Part shown: piece after piece, positions 3,377-20,009 of the stretch | Position numbering within the stretch: the first letter of the stretch is position 1 | How the letters are laid out: each line of letters starts with the position of its first letter | Virus genome (UHGV): UHGV-1724231 | DNA length: 20,096 bases | Strand: one strand, 5' to 3' | From: a virus | Notes under the pieces: model-generated | What the model was told of the DNA's origin: nothing | The model's input: the letters and a program-made list of their open reading frames with translations, nothing else | Database searches by the model: none | Program-made: the position numbers and the translations under genes

Positions 3377-3612
3377 AGTATGTTATGCAGACCCCGCTGA
3401 CTGACGGGGCTGTAGAATCAACTTATGAAGAAGCAGATGAGATGAAATTTGTGCTTGCCATTTATGGAATGGAAGGGTGTAAAGAAACACTCGACCAACT
3501 TTTCTCAATGACTTTCGTTGACCTATTATCTCTTCGTCAATATCTGGAAATCCAGAAGTCATACAAAGAAGAAATGGCCTATAACGAACTCAGAAAGGCA
3601 GGTAAAATTTAA
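3328..3612 (+). CDS. Tail assembly chaperone -1 frameshift extension (GT-like product; listed ORF 3385..3612)
   Basis: -1 frame is open from the slippery site at 3328-3334 through the 75-aa ORF to TAA at 3610-3612, which overlaps the ATG of the tape measure gene. Confidence 0.5.
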   Translation, partial: FFRGKHFQKPNFSGSLKYVMQTPLTDGAVESTYEEADEMKFVLAIYGMEGCKETLDQLFSMTFVDLLSLRQYLEIQKSYKEEMAYNELRKAGKI

Positions 3613-5846
3613 TGGCACAGTATACAGTTGATAGTTTTATTGTGGAACTTGGATTCAGTGAAAAGGTTGTAAAAGGTTTACAGAGAGTTGAAAAGATGGC
3701 TATGCAATCTGCTCAACGCATCGAAAGAAACATTAACAAAGCCTTTGACGTGAAGCCTAATAAAAGTTCTCAAGAAGCTCTAAACAGACTTGTTAAAAAC
3801 GCTCAGACTGCTTCGGGCAGAATCAATAAATCCCTAAACAACGCTCTCAATTTAGATTCTCAAGGTGTTAAATCTCTACGTAAATTAGAGACACAAGGGA
3901 AGAAGACAGCCAAAGAAATTAATAAGGCTCTAAGACAAGCTATGAACGTTGACGGTAAAGTTAATATTCGTGGTGGTGCTGGTAGAGGTCGTGGGAATAC
4001 CGTTCCCCCAATGGGTGGAGGTTCACCAAGAGTTAGACCTGATATTGCTCAGAGACAAATGGAAAGGATGTTTAATAACAACTTCTACTCTGGTCTTACT
4101 CGTCGTCTTGAAACTATTGGTGGACAGGGTAACCAAATGGCTGCTTCTTTCAGAGGCAACTTGCAAGGAATCTATAACAAGTATAAAGGGAGTGGTAAGG
4201 TTGGTGAATATGAGATGGAAGTTAAAAAACTCATTGACACAACCAAACGTTGGGTTATTGCAGAAAATGCTAGAATCAAGGCAGTCAAAGAATCAGCTTG
4301 GCTACAGGATAGAGCAAACTCTTCACTAAGACAGTTAATTGGTGGTTTTGTTTCTGCCTATGCTTTGTTAGAATTAGCTCAGAAGACCATTGATGCAGGT
4401 GTTAAAAGACAGTCTGCACAGTTAGCCTCTACAGCTATCTTTGGAGCAGATACACAGCAAGCTAGAATGTTCGCTGCTACATTCTCTCACCAGATTGGTC
4501 AGAACTACACAGACACTATGAAGCAGTACTCAAACTTTGCTGCTGGTGCTCAACCTGCACTTGGTTTCAAAGGTACTCAGGAGTTCTATAAGAACGCTGC
4601 AATGTTCTCTCGTATTAGAGGGGCATCTGATGAAGACTTGAAAGGTATCATGGTTGCTTTCCAGCAAATGGCATCTAAGGGTAAAGTTCAGGCTGAAGAA
4701 CTTCGTGGTCAGTTAGGTGACCGTTTGGCAGGTGCTGTTCAGTTGTTCTCTGATGCTATTGGTAAGACTCCACAAGAACTTGATAAGTTGATGCAGGATG
4801 GTAAGCTACTTGCTAAAGACGTTCTTCCAAAAGTCTCTGAGAAGATGAGAGAATTGGTTGACGCAGCAGGTGGTATGAATGCTGTATCTAAGCAGACTGC
4901 TACATCAATGGGTCAAGCAAAAGCTATGTGGGATAACACCTTAGTGGCTCTCTTCAACAACTCTAGTGATGGTATCTCACAGTTGTCTAACTCCGTTGCA
5001 ATGTTCTTGCAAGGTTCCCTTGGGACTACTGAAGCTCTTGGTACTGGTATTGGCTACCTGTTAAAAGGTGCTAGTAACCTTCTGGACTTCATCACAGATA
5101 TCATGTATCGAATCTCTGGACTGTACTACCTAGCAATGGGATATTACAGTGATTTAGGTGCAAGTCAACAGAAACTTATCAAGGAATCTGCTGAGTTAGT
5201 TGCAACGTTTACTGCTATCGGTGTTGCAATTGCAGCTATCACGAAAGTTGCTAAAATCTTCGGTGGTACTGTAGCATTTGTCAAGAGTATTTTTGAAGAA
5301 GGTATCTTGGCTAAGATTGCTCAAAAGCTTGGTCTGACAACCGCAGCAGAGACAGTAGCTACAACGGCTGGTGTAACAGGAACTAGAATGGCTCTTGGTG
5401 TAGGTGGTTCTGCACTTATGCTTTCAAGTTCGGCTGACCCAAATGCTGGGAAGAGATTTAGTGATGTTAATACACCAAACCCTTTCAACGAAGCTATTGC
5501 TGGGGTTACCAATGCTAAACGTCCGATGTTCTTTGACCAAAATGGACAGTTGAGGTTCGCACAATATACCACTGACACTTCTGGAAATATTCAGAGAGTG
5601 GATAATGGATTGTCAAATTGGGATATCATCATGAACAACCTGTCTGAGTCTTTAAACAACTTTGCAACTAAGTTTAACCAGACACCAATGATGATGAGTC
5701 CGTCTGGATTCCCATTACAAACTAAGCAGACGCTTAATGTTTCCTTTAATCTGGATGGTAAGCAGATTGCTAATAAAATGGTGGATATCACTAATAAGAG
5801 TCAGGAAGATATTCTGTTAAGTTCTAGCTACCCAGAGGATGAATAA
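3612..5846 (+). CDS. Tail tape measure protein
   Basis: 744-aa ORF, largest in the tail module, Ala/Gln/Lys-rich with Gly-rich segment ([17 protein letters not shown]) and hydrophobic C-terminal segments; immediately after the chaperone pair. Confidence 0.75.
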
Positions 5847-15327: not shown

Positions 15328-15522
15328 ATGCCAACCATTCTAGCAATCCTCTTGAAAAATCTTGGGGCATTCTTCTGGAAGCTTCTACTTTCTCTTCTTA
15401 GCGAATATATGATTGAAAAAGTGTTCTTCAAGCTTGCAAGATACCTTGCGAGTAAAACAGACACACCTATTGATGATGAATTTGTAGATACCTTGGAAAA
15501 GGCTTTTAAGGGTGAAAAATAA
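15328..15522 (+). CDS. Small hydrophobic/amphipathic protein (holin- or membrane-associated candidate)
   Basis: 64-aa ORF with a hydrophobic N-terminal half (ILAILLKNLGAFFWKLLLSLL) and charged C-terminus; AAGG RBS; stop overlaps the next start. Confidence 0.45.
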   Translation: MPTILAILLKNLGAFFWKLLLSLLSEYMIEKVFFKLARYLASKTDTPIDDEFVDTLEKAFKGEK

Positions 15523-15896
15523 TGAAGTGGATTGAAGAGGCTTTTAAGAACAACATTGGTGCAATTGTTGTAGGTATTTTCAGTGTAATTGGTATGTACA
15601 CTACGATGCAGGTCTCTGATGGAAAGCAAGAAGTTTCTATAAACACAAAGTTACAACAGTTGGATGGTTACTCAAAAGGTAACTATTCAGCTATTCGTGA
15701 TTTACAGTCTGATATGAAACTCCTTCAGTTAGGGATGGAGAACCAGAAAGTGCAGCTAGAGAACGTTAAAGGGGAAAACGCTAAGTTGACCAAAACCCTT
15801 GATAAATTCTCAGATAGTGTGAACAACTTAGCACAGTCTGTATCAGCTTTACAAGCAATTACCGAACAAAATACACAGAATGCTAAAAAGAAATAA
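15522..15896 (+). CDS. Membrane-anchored coiled-coil protein (i-spanin-like candidate)
   Basis: 124-aa ORF with one N-terminal transmembrane segment (IGAIVVGIFSVIGMY) followed by a heptad-like Q/L/K/E-rich region; followed by a terminator. Confidence 0.45.
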   Translation: MKWIEEAFKNNIGAIVVGIFSVIGMYTTMQVSDGKQEVSINTKLQQLDGYSKGNYSAIRDLQSDMKLLQLGMENQKVQLENVKGENAKLTKTLDKFSDSVNNLAQSVSALQAITEQNTQNAKKK

Positions 15897-15900
15897 TGCT

Positions 15901-15928
15901 AAGGCTCCCGTAAAAAGGAGCCTTTTTT
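15901..15928. terminator. Bidirectional rho-independent terminator between convergent transcription units
   Basis: AAGGCTCC-loop-GGAGCCTT stem followed by TTTTTT on + strand; on the - strand the same hairpin lies just 3' of the thymidylate synthase stop and is followed by a U-rich tract. Confidence 0.7.
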
Positions 15929-15932
15929 GTAT

Positions 15933-16832
15933 CTACTTACCTACTGACAATGGAGCTTCAATCTTACCAGCATGTCGGTAATCTTTCAAGCCACCTATAA
16001 AGTCACTTGCTGTTAAGTGCTTCAGGTCACCAATACTGTTTAACTCAATATCAATATCAAACTTCGGTGCTGGGAACTCTTCGTTACCTAACAACTGATA
16101 GACTTGCTGCATATGGTTCAGGTAAATCTGGGTATCACCAAAAGTACCAACCAGATAACGTGGAGTTAAACCTGTCATCTTACAAAGCACATGTAGGATA
16201 AACCCATAAGATGCAATATTAAAGGGCAAACCTAAAAATGTGTCGCATGAACGCTGATACCATTTCAAGTCAACCTCTCCAGTATTCGAGATATAAATCT
16301 GGAAAAGTACATGACAAGGGGCTAATGCCATAGAGTTGCTTGAGATATCTGCTGCATTCCATGCGTTAACCAGCATGTAACGGTCTGTAGGAGACTTTTT
16401 CATCTTATCCACAAGATTACTCAACTGGTCAACGACAACCCCACCATGCCCCTCAAAAGCCCTCCATTGGACACCATAGATTCGTCCACCTGCATCTTCC
16501 AACCAATCATTTTCAGTTGCATAGGTTGTCTTTAACCAACGTTCAAAATCATCTGTCCAGATAGTCCAACGCTCTCCATCGTTCTCTCCCCAAGTTCTGT
16601 AACGTAAATCACCCAACTTGTTTTCACCATTCAAAAACCACAATGCTTCACCTAAAACTTGACGCATGAAGGTTTGCTTTGAAGTGATTAATGGGAAACC
16701 ACTACGCATGTCAAAACGAAACTCTGGAGGTGCAAACGTTGTAACAACCTTTCCAGTTCTTGTTTTACGTTCTTCCCCAACAGAAAGAACATGGTTGAGA
16801 ATCCCTTTGTAACTTATATCTGCTTGTGACAT
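15933..16832 (-). CDS. thyA: Thymidylate synthase (ThyA family)
   Basis: 299-aa ORF with ThyA hallmark motifs: RTG…GFPL(I/V)T(S/T)K, ALAPCH (catalytic Cys), YQRSCD-FLGLPFNIASY (Asn in FNIAS indicates dUMP specificity); AGAGGA RBS. Confidence 0.85.
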   Translation of the reverse strand: MSQADISYKGILNHVLSVGEERKTRTGKVVTTFAPPEFRFDMRSGFPLITSKQTFMRQVLGEALWFLNGENKLGDLRYRTWGENDGERWTIWTDDFERWLKTTYATENDWLEDAGGRIYGVQWRAFEGHGGVVVDQLSNLVDKMKKSPTDRYMLVNAWNAADISSNSMALAPCHVLFQIYISNTGEVDLKWYQRSCDTFLGLPFNIASYGFILHVLCKMTGLTPRYLVGTFGDTQIYLNHMQQVYQLLGNEEFPAPKFDIDIELNSIGDLKHLTASDFIGGLKDYRHAGKIEAPLSVGK

Positions 16833-16833
16833 A

Positions 16834-17379
16834 TTAGAAACGTCCTCTTACTTGTGGAACATAAATGTTGAATACAACGCTGTCATCTTTCGATGGTTTT
16901 GACTGTATTCTAGCAAAAGTTGACTCATCATACAAGTACTCAAAGAAACCCTTATAAGGCAGCTTAACAGTTGCTTCTTCAGTCACTTCACGGATATATG
17001 TTTGACAAATTGCATCTGCATATGGTAAAGCTTGGATAAGAATACCTGCTCCACCAATTATACAAACATCTTGCTCAATACTACTATCCAGATGTTTTAA
17101 GAATGCCCCAAAAGCGTCTGGGTGAACCTTAGCAAACATTACATCTTCTCTACCAAAATCTATACCTTCATACGGTAATGAGTTTGTCAGAACAAGATTA
17201 TCACGGTCTGGTAAAGGTTTACTTCCAAGACTCTTGAAAGTGTCATTACCCATAACTACCAATTGACCTGTAGTAATCCTCTTGAACTCTTGCATATCTT
17301 GCTTATTACGAGGCCAAGGCATACCAGAGGGGCAACCAAACTCCCCGTTAATACCGTTTGCAAAAACCAATTTAATCAT
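16834..17379 (-). CDS. folA: Dihydrofolate reductase
   Basis: 181-aa ORF with DHFR-like motifs (GMPWP near N-terminus, LVVMGNDTFKSLG, PLPDRDNLVLT, CIIGGAGI); 1-nt gap to thyA, matching the known frd-td pairing in large lytic phages. Confidence 0.75.
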   Translation of the reverse strand: MIKLVFANGINGEFGCPSGMPWPRNKQDMQEFKRITTGQLVVMGNDTFKSLGSKPLPDRDNLVLTNSLPYEGIDFGREDVMFAKVHPDAFGAFLKHLDSSIEQDVCIIGGAGILIQALPYADAICQTYIREVTEEATVKLPYKGFFEYLYDESTFARIQSKPSKDDSVVFNIYVPQVRGRF

Positions 17380-17648
17380 TGTGTGAACCCTTTTACAATA
17401 AACCAGTTAGCAATATTCTTCACAGTTTTTACTGGATGGAATACTAAGCGTGGTTGTGGTTGATAACTGCCATAAGCCCAGAAAGAGATGATGTTGTCAC
17501 AATCAGTGCAACGTGTGTACTCTTCTGCTACGTTCCCTGCCACAATCTCTGTAATCTCACCTTGGAAATTTGTACCCCCACAATGGGGGCATTTTAGAGG
17601 TTCACCATCTTGGTTGTAGCATTGCTCAAACTTCTCAAAAAGTTTCAC
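17376..17648 (-). CDS. Small zinc-ribbon protein, unknown function
   Basis: 90-aa ORF with CPHCGG…CTDCD (two CxxC pairs); GTG start with AAGGT RBS; stop overlaps the folA start (ATGA). Confidence 0.5.
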   Translation of the reverse strand: MKLFEKFEQCYNQDGEPLKCPHCGGTNFQGEITEIVAGNVAEEYTRCTDCDNIISFWAYGSYQPQPRLVFHPVKTVKNIANWFIVKGFTQ

Positions 17649-17699
17649 TTTTTGTTTACCTTAAAAGCTTGCTGGATATCAACTACGAAGTCTAAATCA

Positions 17700-18158
17700 T
17701 CACACTAGGAAATCTTCAAAGTGTTTTGGTATAAAACTTAGGAAATCCATAGAACCCAAATCACCTACTAAGCGAATGTAATAATCGTTCTCGCAAGTTG
17801 CATTAACTACATGTCGGCCTATGTATGGCTTCACAACCTCTCTGATATCATCTATGAAGATGTTCAGAAGAGTTTTGAAGGATTTAGGGTACTGAGTTCC
17901 TCCATACAAGTCAATGCTTGCTTCAGTCTTTACAGAGATTGATTTAGCATCTCTGAACTCAGTTGCGAACAGATGAGCAGGAAGAATACAAAGTGAGTCC
18001 CCAGTATCTTCATCAACCAACTCAATAGTTCCTGCATCATAGTTTGTTTTAATCAGTATTTCACCTTCTTGTGACTTTTTGGTTTCAAGGTGAGTGGTGA
18101 TAATACCTCTCAACATTGATGCTTCTGGGAGCAGTAAGTTGATTCCAATCTTTTGCAT
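17700..18158 (-). CDS. Hypothetical protein
   Basis: 152-aa ORF, coupled to the upstream gene (1-nt gap); no recognisable motif. Confidence 0.5.
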   Translation of the reverse strand: MQKIGINLLLPEASMLRGIITTHLETKKSQEGEILIKTNYDAGTIELVDEDTGDSLCILPAHLFATEFRDAKSISVKTEASIDLYGGTQYPKSFKTLLNIFIDDIREVVKPYIGRHVVNATCENDYYIRLVGDLGSMDFLSFIPKHFEDFLV

Positions 18159-18159
18159 G

Positions 18160-18663
18160 TCATACCTCTACAAAGGTGTTTTTGTCATTATCAAACTTGA
18201 AGAATTTTATACACTTCTGAGTCTTCCAGTCAATCTTTTGGTCATAAGAAAGACCTTGAGAGACTCTCTTACCAACTGTTTGATAGATAATTTCACGAAG
18301 AGCATCATATTCCTTCCAAGCTCTTGTACCAATAGTTATATTGGCTCTCTTATAGCTCTCAACAGCTTGCTCATTCCAACGTTGCTCACTAACACTACCA
18401 ACTTTGTAGAGTCTTGGAAGAAGCTCATAACCCATTTGACCTTTCTCTCTGGCAATCTTTAGGTTATGAAGGTACTCGTTAAGGCGACCGTCTTCTTCAA
18501 GCCAACGATAAAGACTCTGGAGACCAAAAATCTCGTTGTTGAAGTGAGCAGCACGTTTCACAGAACCTAAGTCAGCACGATAATCTGATTTAGGGAGGCT
18601 TAGAATACAATCTTGTAATACATTGTATCCAAAGTACAAGTTCAGTTTTACGGGAAGAGACAT
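18160..18663 (-). CDS. Hypothetical protein
   Basis: 167-aa ORF, overlaps the upstream gene by 16 nt; no recognisable motif. Confidence 0.5.
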   Translation of the reverse strand: MSLPVKLNLYFGYNVLQDCILSLPKSDYRADLGSVKRAAHFNNEIFGLQSLYRWLEEDGRLNEYLHNLKIAREKGQMGYELLPRLYKVGSVSEQRWNEQAVESYKRANITIGTRAWKEYDALREIIYQTVGKRVSQGLSYDQKIDWKTQKCIKFFKFDNDKNTFVEV

Positions 18664-19013
18664 TTAATATCCTCATTTTTAAAGGTGAACGTGGTGTAGT
18701 TAGTCCCGTCAACATTTAGCCAGATAGCCTTAACAGATACACCATCAATATTGCCAAACAGTTCTTTGATGAACTTGTTACGAACATCATGAGCACAAGT
18801 TGTCTCAAGCTTAATGTTAGAGATAGCGGAGCCAATTGTCATATAACCAGCAATACGACTCTTCTCAGTATGCTTGATTCTTCCTTCTTGATACATCTGC
18901 TTCAGGACTCCCAAGAGTTCTTCACCAAATGACTTCTCAGCACTCGTCGGTTTCCCGTAGAAACCAAGTGCAAAGTTGTCGTTGAAAATTGCATTCTTAC
19001 GTTTCATAATCAA
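18648..19013 (-). CDS. Hypothetical protein
   Basis: 121-aa ORF in the same coupled operon. Confidence 0.5.
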   Translation of the reverse strand: MIMKRKNAIFNDNFALGFYGKPTSAEKSFGEELLGVLKQMYQEGRIKHTEKSRIAGYMTIGSAISNIKLETTCAHDVRNKFIKELFGNIDGVSVKAIWLNVDGTNYTTFTFKNEDIKCLFP

Positions 19014-19309
19014 TCTGCCTTACTTAAGTTGAAGTTTAAACCAAGTTTATCACAAATACTAATCATGTAGTCAAGCGAAACTTTACCGCTACCGTTTAAG
19101 ATGTTTGAAACTCTTGCTTGAGAAATCTCACAAATCTTTGCTACCTGAACTTGTGATAGATTGTTTCTTTTCATGTGAATGTGGAGTTTCTCAGAGATAT
19201 AGAACTTCATCTCATCCACATCCATTCCAGCTATGTATGTTTCCATTTCAGACTCTCTATCAGCCTCCCAAGAATCTTGAGGTGCATAAGGGTCGAAGAC
19301 TTTATTCAT
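19010..19309 (-). CDS. HTH (XRE/Cro-C1-type) DNA-binding protein with acidic N-terminal extension
   Basis: 99-aa ORF; C-terminal helix-turn-helix signature LSQVQVAKICEISQARVSNILNG; ATGA overlap with the downstream gene. Confidence 0.6.
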   Translation of the reverse strand: MNKVFDPYAPQDSWEADRESEMETYIAGMDVDEMKFYISEKLHIHMKRNNLSQVQVAKICEISQARVSNILNGSGKVSLDYMISICDKLGLNFNLSKAD

Positions 19310-19505
19310 CCTTCTTCCTCCGTTTACGCGAAGTGTCTATTAATGAATCTATACTGGTTGCTCTTACATTCTCACGAGTCCCGTTGACGAAGTGGTCTAG
19401 AGCCTCTACAACCGTATTAAAATCCTTAGCCCAAACTCTGTAAATAACTACTCCATCGTCGTCAACAACTTCGCCATAGTCAATTCTACAGATGTTCTTT
19501 TTCAT
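19302..19505 (-). CDS. Small hypothetical protein overlapping the HTH gene
   Basis: 67-aa ORF with basic C-terminal tail (RKRRKKDE); 8-nt overlap with the HTH gene start, 4-nt overlap with the upstream gene. Confidence 0.4.
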   Translation of the reverse strand: MKKNICRIDYGEVVDDDGVVIYRVWAKDFNTVVEALDHFVNGTRENVRATSIDSLIDTSRKRRKKDE

Positions 19506-19882
19506 TGTGGCAGACCCATGCAGTGACGGTTGATGATAAAGTACTCAAACCCATCTAAAACAGACTGTGTAACGTGTTCTTCTACAGCTTTAGTTTCAGA
19601 AATCTGTTCAGAACTTAGAACATCAATATTCTCAGAAACCATCATATCAGCCACATCGTTGTAGTAACCACCCATAGTGTGGTAGATGAGGTCAGTTGTA
19701 CGGTCTGTCATTTCCTGAAAAGTTTCTTGGGTGATTGGGCTAGTTAACTCTCCAGACTTAGAAACAATCTTTTGAGAAAGCTCACAAGACTCCAGTTTAA
19801 CTTTACCGTAGTCCATATTTGGCATAACCGCATAAGCATTGAAGCTTAGTACTGCAAAGAGACATAGTGCAATCTTTTTCAT
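19502..19882 (-). CDS. Secreted/periplasmic protein with N-terminal signal peptide
   Basis: 126-aa ORF; MKKIALCLFAVLSFNAYA has a signal-peptide-like n/h/c region with an AYA cleavage motif; AGGAG RBS 8 nt upstream; first gene of the - strand operon. Confidence 0.55.
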   Translation of the reverse strand: MKKIALCLFAVLSFNAYAVMPNMDYGKVKLESCELSQKIVSKSGELTSPITQETFQEMTDRTTDLIYHTMGGYYNDVADMMVSENIDVLSSEQISETKAVEEHVTQSVLDGFEYFIINRHCMGLPQ

Positions 19883-19922
19883 AACTTACTCCTATATAAT
19901 ATTTTGTATACCTACAAGTATA

Positions 19923-19970
19923 AAAATAAGCTATAACACCTGACTTGTCAACAGATTTTATAGCTTATTT
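19923..19970 (-). promoter_or_regulatory. Candidate promoter (TTGACA-N17-TATTTT) within a 13-bp perfect inverted repeat (possible operator)
   Basis: On - strand: TTGACA (complement of 19946-19951), 17-nt spacer, TATTTT (complement of 19923-19928); arms AAATAAGCTATAA (19924-19936) and TTATAGCTTATTT (19958-19970) flank it. Confidence 0.4.
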
Positions 19971-20009
19971 GGCAGATTTTTTATAAGGCTACTGCCATCC
20001 TTCCATACC

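Follow-up and report, generated by a model that had tools for sequence, protein, structure and literature searches.

We analyzed a 20,096-nucleotide (nt) stretch of the virus genome UHGV-1724231, hereafter the window, in which four open reading frames (ORFs), all on the minus strand and within positions 17376-19013, belong to a nine-gene unit that also encodes dihydrofolate reductase (DHFR) and thymidylate synthase (TS). By conservation and coding constraint, the four are genuine protein-coding genes rather than chance ORFs. They encode a basic protein of 119 amino acids (aa), a basic helical protein of 167 aa, an acidic protein of 152 aa that is a truncated member of a 173-aa family, and a 90-aa zinc ribbon. 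The best explanation overall, to which we assign a rough probability of 0.45, is that these are four unrelated, lineage-restricted genes in a replication-module operon that fall into two classes. The 119-aa protein and the zinc ribbon would form a slowly evolving class, the former always located among the genes for DNA polymerase, ligase, DHFR, and TS; we tentatively regard both as small proteins that support phage DNA metabolism by binding or as adaptors, not as enzymes. The 167-aa protein and the acidic α/β protein of 173 aa would form an accessory class, diverging much faster than their neighbors and swapped as alleles, with the 167-aa gene lost in Felixounavirus and duplicated in a Yersinia phage and the 173-aa gene occasionally inactivated. 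With slightly more reserve, these two might be host-interaction proteins that act in counter-defense or host takeover.

The source genome is a Moogle-type, Felix-O1-like myovirus of the Ounavirinae. Over its right-hand 4.2 kb, the window shares 97.6% identity with the Shigella phages ESh21 and ESh22, and this part has matches in ∼260 Felix-O1-like genomes; ESh21 is classified in the genus Mooglevirus of the Ounavirinae. Salmonella typing and therapeutic cocktails against Shigella and Salmonella make use of Felix-O1-like and Moogle-like phages, most of whose non-structural genes have no assigned function. The present analysis sorts four such dark genes into a pair of conserved replication-module factors and a pair of fast-evolving accessory proteins, and it adds a confident model of the 173-aa family and a link between the 167-aa protein and distant copies in Yersinia and Pectobacterium phages. 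These are modest entry points that leave the current understanding unchanged.

Four Genuine Genes in a Replication-module Operon

The original prediction had taken the four ORFs to be real because they are co-oriented with genes for a signal-peptide protein, a helix-turn-helix (HTH) regulator, DHFR, and TS, and profile matches, coding constraint, and conservation all agree with this. The products match the PHROG families phrog_4116 (119 aa, E = 5e-61), phrog_9143 (167 aa, 8e-92), phrog_4422 (152 aa, 3e-59), and phrog_2993 (zinc ribbon, 3e-36). These matches are full-length save that to phrog_4422, which ends at profile position 149 of 171 because the window copy is truncated. In tblastn searches, homologs were found in 301 phage records for the 119-aa protein, 44 for the 167-aa protein, 253 for the 173-aa family, and 358 for the zinc ribbon. 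Pairwise ratios of nonsynonymous to synonymous substitution rates (dN/dS) against three to four relatives lie at about 0.03-0.31, compared with 0.17-0.32 for DHFR (the value for the 152-aa gene against the relative L006 was a coordinate artifact and was left out). Ribosome-binding sites precede all four starts. Homology searches placed none of the four proteins in a housekeeping family, and all four ORFs are conserved in relatives.

The operon spans positions ∼19951 to 15901 on the minus strand, belongs to the replication and nucleotide-metabolism module of the phage, and is organized as a single promoter-to-terminator unit. It is transcribed in the order signal-peptide protein, 67-aa protein, Xre-type HTH regulator, 119-aa protein, 167-aa protein, 152-aa protein, zinc ribbon, DHFR, and TS (Table 1). 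The −35 box TTGACA of the promoter is invariant in 10 of 10 aligned genomes. At the distal end, the terminator stem is kept in 10 genomes, with loop-proximal bases changing in a compensatory way, and the same hairpin appears in the Felix O1 genome paper under the terminator designations t79 and t80 (PMC3185647). A terminator scan of the region revealed no other hairpin and none internal to the operon, so that the assignment of the genes to one transcription unit holds. The same gene order is found in Felix O1, Moogle, and ESh21, where the ESh21 counterparts are hypothetical proteins with 98-100% identity to the four proteins of the window; Felix O1, unlike the window, is devoid of the phrog_9143 gene.

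The overlapping stops and starts described for the block are present at only some of its junctions. The 119-aa and 167-aa genes overlap by 16 nt, and the zinc-ribbon and DHFR genes share an ATGA overlap, whereas spacers of 2 nt and 1 nt separate the HTH from the 119-aa gene and the 167-aa from the 152-aa gene, respectively, and a gap of 51 nt lies between the 152-aa gene and the zinc ribbon.

The designation of the genes as early-type has to be revised. In the RefSeq numbering of Felix O1, ORF80 is td, ORF81 is frd, ORF82 the zinc ribbon, ORF83 the 171-aa protein, ORF84 the 119-aa protein, and ORF85 the regulator. According to end-point reverse transcription PCR (RT-PCR) in Felix O1, which belongs to a genus other than that of the window phage, ORF81 (DHFR) peaks at 10 min, and ORFs 80, 83, 84, 87, and 88 peak at 25 min in the “middle” class, which is common to TS and ligase; ORFs 82, 85, and 86 are absent from the table (PMC3185647, Table 3). 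Given these peaks, delayed-early to middle is the more apt designation for the block, whose expression goes together with that of the enzymes of DNA metabolism.

Narrow Families without a Named Function

In line with the claim that no motif other than the zinc ribbon can be assigned, all four proteins belong to PHROG families without a function and to no characterized family. Searches of Pfam and NCBIfam gave no named-family match above curated cutoffs for the window proteins, and PADLOC gave no match at E values up to 1 for the six proteins tested. Sequence searches of the PDB with single proteins and family profiles produced nothing credible, apart from one marginal match to PDE10A that is discussed below. 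Scans of distant relatives returned the same unnamed PHROGs and sub-threshold zinc-ribbon noise only. The four families show no paralogy and are unrelated to each other. They are also narrow: searches of 5.8 billion proteins yielded 14, 10, and 19 clusters. Structure prediction had been proposed for each protein; AlphaFold models were obtained for two of them (173 aa and 167 aa) and named no function. The literature on anti-defense, escape mutants, and expression in Felixounavirus and Mooglevirus contributed no more than the RT-PCR table of Felix O1 and the phenotypes of the BASEL collection. The block is already-catalogued phage dark matter and not a new system.

The 119-aa Protein

The 119-aa protein had been counted as 121 aa from a TTG at position 19013. 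Its real start is the ATG at 19007, since all homologs begin with MK(R/T/A), the alignment to the PHROG profile sets in at residue 3, and the protein annotated in ESh21 has 119 aa. The family is found in every group of Ounavirinae sampled, including phages of Erwinia, Yersinia, and Hafnia, and its gene is the most strongly constrained of the four (dN/dS as low as 0.03). Compared with the Felixounavirus phage warpig, the protein is 63% identical (DHFR, 65%). An exhaustive search with a profile hidden Markov model of the family recovered 5 true relatives in 1.84 billion representatives; four long proteins also returned by this search were fragmentary, marginal matches and were treated as spurious.

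The neighborhood of the gene is informative. In Erwinia Kolesnikvirus phages, the 119-aa gene is flanked by a lipoprotein gene on one side and by tRNA nucleotidyltransferase and ligase (and DHFR) genes on the other, and in the Yersinia phage P778 it lies between DNA polymerase and ligase. These replication-gene neighbors, together with the lack of an adjoining HTH gene in the Erwinia and Yersinia phages, exclude an obligate partnership with the HTH regulator. This also bears on the idea that the Xre-type HTH protein and the 119-aa protein form a toxin-antitoxin-like pair. Such a pair would fit the adjacency and tight spacing of the two genes in the window, the Xre type of the regulator, and the small, basic nature of its partner, but the adjacency breaks down in the Erwinia and Yersinia phages and no match to a toxin family was found; we therefore rejected this reading on synteny and consider it extremely improbable. 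As a side observation, the record of the Yersinia phage vB_YenM_P778 (L015) carries an intact 119-aa phrog_4116 homolog at 3501-3860, where ORF072 and ORF071 are annotated in other frames.

The Zinc Ribbon

The CxxC...CxxC zinc ribbon noted in the original prediction is confirmed by four invariant cysteines (Cys-20, Cys-23, Cys-47, and Cys-50). Together with the motif WAYGxYxP, they are invariant across Ounavirinae, Krischvirus, Tegunavirus, Nonagvirus, and one phage of the Autographivirales. The protein shares 63.5% identity with its warpig counterpart (DHFR, 65%). Its gene overlaps the start or end of different neighbors, namely DHFR here, Dcm methylase in phage kaaroe, and DNA polymerase in phage Peggy.

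Other small four-cysteine zinc ribbons of phages and prophages are found in the family of Lar, the restriction alleviation protein of the Rac prophage, and in the ECs_2282 family of putative zinc-binding proteins, which is itself uncharacterized. The phage zinc ribbon differs from both by its conserved WAYGxYxP motif and a 35-residue C-terminal extension. To ECs_2282 (NF047912) it scores 25.8 bits against a cutoff of 37, and 4 of 6 relatives match this family, all below threshold. That the zinc ribbon might act like Lar, modulating type I restriction enzymes and so alleviating restriction, is suggested by weak matches to the Lar models PF14354 (Lar_restr_allev; 18.0 bits) and TIGR03655 (17.3 bits), by similarly weak matches of 2 of 6 relatives to the Lar model, and by the Krischvirus homolog, which directly follows a Dcm methylase. 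However, the curated cutoffs of 28.6 and 39.6 bits are far from being reached, and the matches are confined to the generic CxxC...CxxC region, whereas WAYGxYxP and the C-terminal extension lie outside the Lar-matching stretch. The protein does possess the four cysteines expected of Lar, but this feature is common to many unrelated zinc ribbons, and many unrelated zinc-ribbon families are matched just as weakly. Moreover, a Felixounavirus of the BASEL collection is highly sensitive to restriction-modification (RM) systems. Restriction alleviation is thus an improbable function for the zinc ribbon.

The 173-aa Family and an 8-bp Deletion

The 152-aa protein of the window turned out to be a truncated copy of a longer one: the ESh21 gene encodes 173 aa, and every intact relative encodes 171-173 aa. 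The window is missing 8 bp, ATCAAGTG, that are present in ESh21 and in three further relatives (L009, L010, and L011), and comparison of these sequences points to the deletion as the derived state in the window. The deleted 8 bp end in the same AGTG that directly follows them, which is the signature of a microhomology event and not of a homopolymer error. The resulting frameshift replaces a conserved 22-residue tail by one residue and a stop codon. Because the lost tail can still be read in another frame, the deletion is taken to be recent. It also accounts for the 51-nt gap in front of the zinc ribbon, for which relatives have an ATGA overlap.

The AlphaFold model of the 173-aa protein is confident (predicted local distance difference test (pLDDT) 91.4; predicted template modeling score (pTM) 0.77) and consists of two successive units, each formed by a helix followed by four strands. 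The second unit ends in strands at residues 157-172 (pLDDT 87-95), which is the part lost in the window. Going by the model, the window copy is probably impaired through the loss of a conserved, confidently predicted C-terminal β-element.

A second, independent inactivation was found in the Escherichia phage SUSP2 (L007, position ∼4770), where a 1-bp deletion (TATCCACG to TATCACG) splits the gene. The gene is intact in the sibling phage phiSUSP1 (L008), and the 100-aa fragment of SUSP2 is listed as a separate protein in BFVD. With broken copies in the window phage and SUSP2 and intact copies elsewhere, the gene is maintained in nature and dispensable in at least two sequenced isolates. The window phage is thereby a naturally occurring truncation mutant, with the near-isogenic ESh21 and ESh22 available for comparison.

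With respect to the fold, the nearest known structures considered are the DNA-clamp domains (β-clamp, PCNA, T4 gp45, and herpesvirus UL44 and UL42) and PDB entry 2r41, an uncharacterized protein of E. faecalis. A single-domain, clamp-like accessory factor of the replisome would agree with the duplicated helix-plus-four-strand unit, the location of the gene in a replication module, and the herpesvirus processivity factors among the BFVD matches. However, the E values of the BFVD search were not significant and the only other matches were fragments of the family itself, so that no significant structural match to a clamp domain was obtained; nor did the model have a convincing structural neighbor in the PDB or among viral models. 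The duplication is seen in secondary structure, but the two halves share no detectable sequence similarity (an internal repeat was not significant). The protein is acidic, with a charge of about −10, and its two main helices appear from the sequence to carry few basic residues. The truncation of the gene in the window and SUSP2, and the lack of a detectable homolog in Erwinia phages, likewise speak against a replisome factor, and we consider a clamp-like role unlikely.

The zinc-ribbon start at 17648 also differs between the genomes, being GTG in the window versus ATG in ESh21, at a site 50-60 nt downstream of the 8-bp deletion. As judged from these two sequence changes, the window genome may express the zinc ribbon, and possibly DHFR, differently.

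The 167-aa Protein

Felixounavirus has no member of the 167-aa family; in warpig, the 119-aa gene lies directly next to the 171-aa gene. Direct searches found the family only in Moogle/SUSP-type genomes of 87-90 kb. Profile-profile comparison (hhalign) connected it to a protein of 169-184 aa in the Yersinia phage P778 and the Pectobacterium phages Arno18 and Wc4 (probability 94%, E = 1e-7, 144 columns). These remote homologs sit in the same ligase-to-TS neighborhood, and P778 carries a tandem paralog (hhalign probability 94.7%). Besides the initiator methionine, only Lys-36, Leu-55, Trp-146, and Phe-154 are invariant in this superfamily. Erwinia gp047 was considered as a homolog of the 167-aa or 173-aa family and was rejected. 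AlphaFold predicts helices and a C-terminal hairpin for the 167-aa protein, and the most conserved motif, at the N terminus, is modeled with low confidence.

Comparison with a metagenomic relative (L011) shows 95-100% identity in the flanks, falling to 42-82% between ∼18900 and 18200, with 60% identity for the 167-aa protein. Such a drop between near-identical flanks indicates an allele swap at the 167-aa gene.

The one exception in the PDB searches was a marginal match of the widened 167-aa profile to the catalytic domain of the phosphodiesterase PDE10A (E = 0.0035, 20 bits, ∼106 positions). It would suggest a degenerate HD-type cyclic-nucleotide phosphodiesterase that degrades signaling molecules of bacterial defense systems. 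However, the metal-binding HD/DH segment of PDE10A aligns to an insertion that is missing from the phage family, no histidine or aspartate is invariant in the superfamily, and the protein is half the size of a phosphodiesterase domain. Because of the position of the metal-binding motif and the lack of conserved histidine and aspartate residues, this reading is effectively refuted.

Two Classes or One Anti-defense Island

The original prediction saw in the block the likeliest site of any undescribed function in the window and pointed to host takeover or anti-defense, for which small early-operon proteins of lytic phages are a frequent source. Evolutionary behavior suggests that this fits the 167-aa and 173-aa proteins, with their fast divergence, mosaic alleles, loss, duplication, and inactivation, and that it fits poorly the slowly evolving 119-aa protein and zinc ribbon, which travel with replication enzymes. 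The contrast is clear in the comparison with warpig, where the 173-aa protein of the window lineage retains 33% identity and its neighbors retain 62-65%.

An island in which all four proteins inhibit host immunity or host machinery would be in keeping with their small size, lineage restriction, and expression ahead of the late genes, with the mosaic nature of the region, and with the duplication of the 167-aa family and its loss in some lineages. The conserved N-terminal motif of the 167-aa protein, modeled as disordered, also resembles partner-binding motifs. Against this, PADLOC gave no match, and the searches of Pfam, NCBIfam, and PHROGs returned no named anti-defense family. The pace at which the 119-aa and zinc-ribbon genes evolve is as low as that of DHFR, and both remain associated with replication genes. 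In addition, the RM-sensitive BASEL Felixounavirus carries an intact 171-aa homolog and, by genus-wide conservation, probably also the 119-aa and zinc-ribbon genes. Its sensitivity would be unexpected if the block encoded a potent, conserved anti-restriction factor, and we regard an island of four anti-defense genes as doubtful. A narrower proposal, somewhat less doubtful but still unlikely, is that the 167-aa protein, the 173-aa protein, or both represent a novel type of host-interaction factor that inhibits or triggers a bacterial defense system. If this were true, the 8-bp deletion would be an escape or adaptation event and not neutral decay.

The division into two classes is preferred here, at the strength given at the outset, and several points weigh against it. 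It is drawn from evolutionary rate and synteny only. The mosaicism proceeds gene by gene and in other comparisons also affects the 119-aa gene, so that it is regional and does not single out the 167-aa gene, and the model of the 167-aa protein is of moderate quality only (pLDDT 68). Of 258 records, 253 (∼98%) contain 80% or more of the 173-aa gene, which shows 90-100% conservation within Felixounavirus; the gene is evidently maintained, and inactivation is rare. For the zinc ribbon, the overlapping neighbor varies between phages, and no specific link to DHFR is established.

Coordinates and Flanking Elements

Table 1. Features of the operon and its boundaries in the window
Feature	Position	Strand	Remark
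Sigma-70-like promoter (TTGACA, 17 nt, TATTTT)	19923..19951	-	consensus scan, 10/12 positions match
Inverted repeat flanking the −35 hexamer, 19-nt arms (19924-19942, 19952-19970)	19924..19970		89% complementary
Signal-peptide-like protein, 126 aa, operon gene 1, phrog_4332	19502..19882	-	strong AGGAG ribosome-binding site
67-aa protein, phrog_4473, function not named	19302..19505	-	PHROG match
Xre-type HTH regulator, 99 aa	19010..19309	-	Pfam HTH_3, 36.6 bits (cutoff 23); phrog_1373 (transcriptional regulator)
119-aa basic protein, pI 9.1, phrog_4116	18648..19007	-	previously given as 121 aa
167-aa basic, mostly helical protein, pI 9.1, phrog_9143	18160..18663	-	fast-evolving accessory family
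152-aa acidic protein, C-terminally truncated member of the 171-173-aa phrog_4422	17700..18158	-	
8-bp deletion junction; ESh21 ATCAAGTG falls between 17707 and 17706	17703..17710	-	AGTG microhomology
Relic of the lost 173-aa C-terminal tail, other frame, 21 aa	17648..17710	-	90% identity to ESh21
90-aa four-cysteine zinc ribbon, WAYGxYxP motif, phrog_2993, GTG start	17376..17648	-	ATGA overlap with DHFR
DHFR	16834..17379	-	
TS	15933..16832	-	
Bidirectional intrinsic terminator hairpin closing the operon just after TS	15901..15924		terminator scan

A non-coding leader upstream of the operon, at ∼19886-19996 on the minus strand, which is single-copy and unannotated, is conserved at 90-98% identity in 231 phage records, including Felix O1. 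It contains the TTGACA box, placed at the center of the inverted repeat given in Table 1. The protein encoded by the first gene after the leader, in contrast, reaches merely 30-66% identity. ESh21 and the records L011, L009, and L005 have another variant of the leader, which contains an inverted repeat of its own. An Rfam search with the operon and leader gave no match. The leader could serve as an operator for the HTH regulator of the operon itself or mark a recombination boundary.

The variable early-gene regions of T4-like phages contain promoter-early stem-loops. As in those regions, small ORFan genes are exchanged here gene by gene between close relatives, and the promoter that heads the operon sits inside an inverted repeat. 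Unlike the T4-like stem-loops, the element described here is single-copy and extremely conserved and is not repeated between genes.

For operon gene 1, ESh21 (L001, 6611-7066) annotates 151 aa from an upstream ATG, so that the coding sequence would run through the conserved promoter. The 126-aa version, preceded by AGGAG, is the more plausible one.

Felix-O1-like copies of the genes discussed here and of the leader were also found in three records whose names point to unrelated hosts, Staphylococcus phage SA1 (GU169904), Campylobacter phage A132 (MG065664), and Listeria phage LPML1 (OK283618), with ∼90% or higher identity for the SA1 and A132 copies. These three records are probably chimeric or mislabeled deposits.

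Beyond the operon, the terminator separates TS from a convergent 124-aa gene. The plus strand of the window at 15328-15896 carries two small genes (64 aa and 124 aa, with an ATGA overlap) that converge on TS, and the homolog of the 124-aa gene in phage warpig is annotated as a holin.

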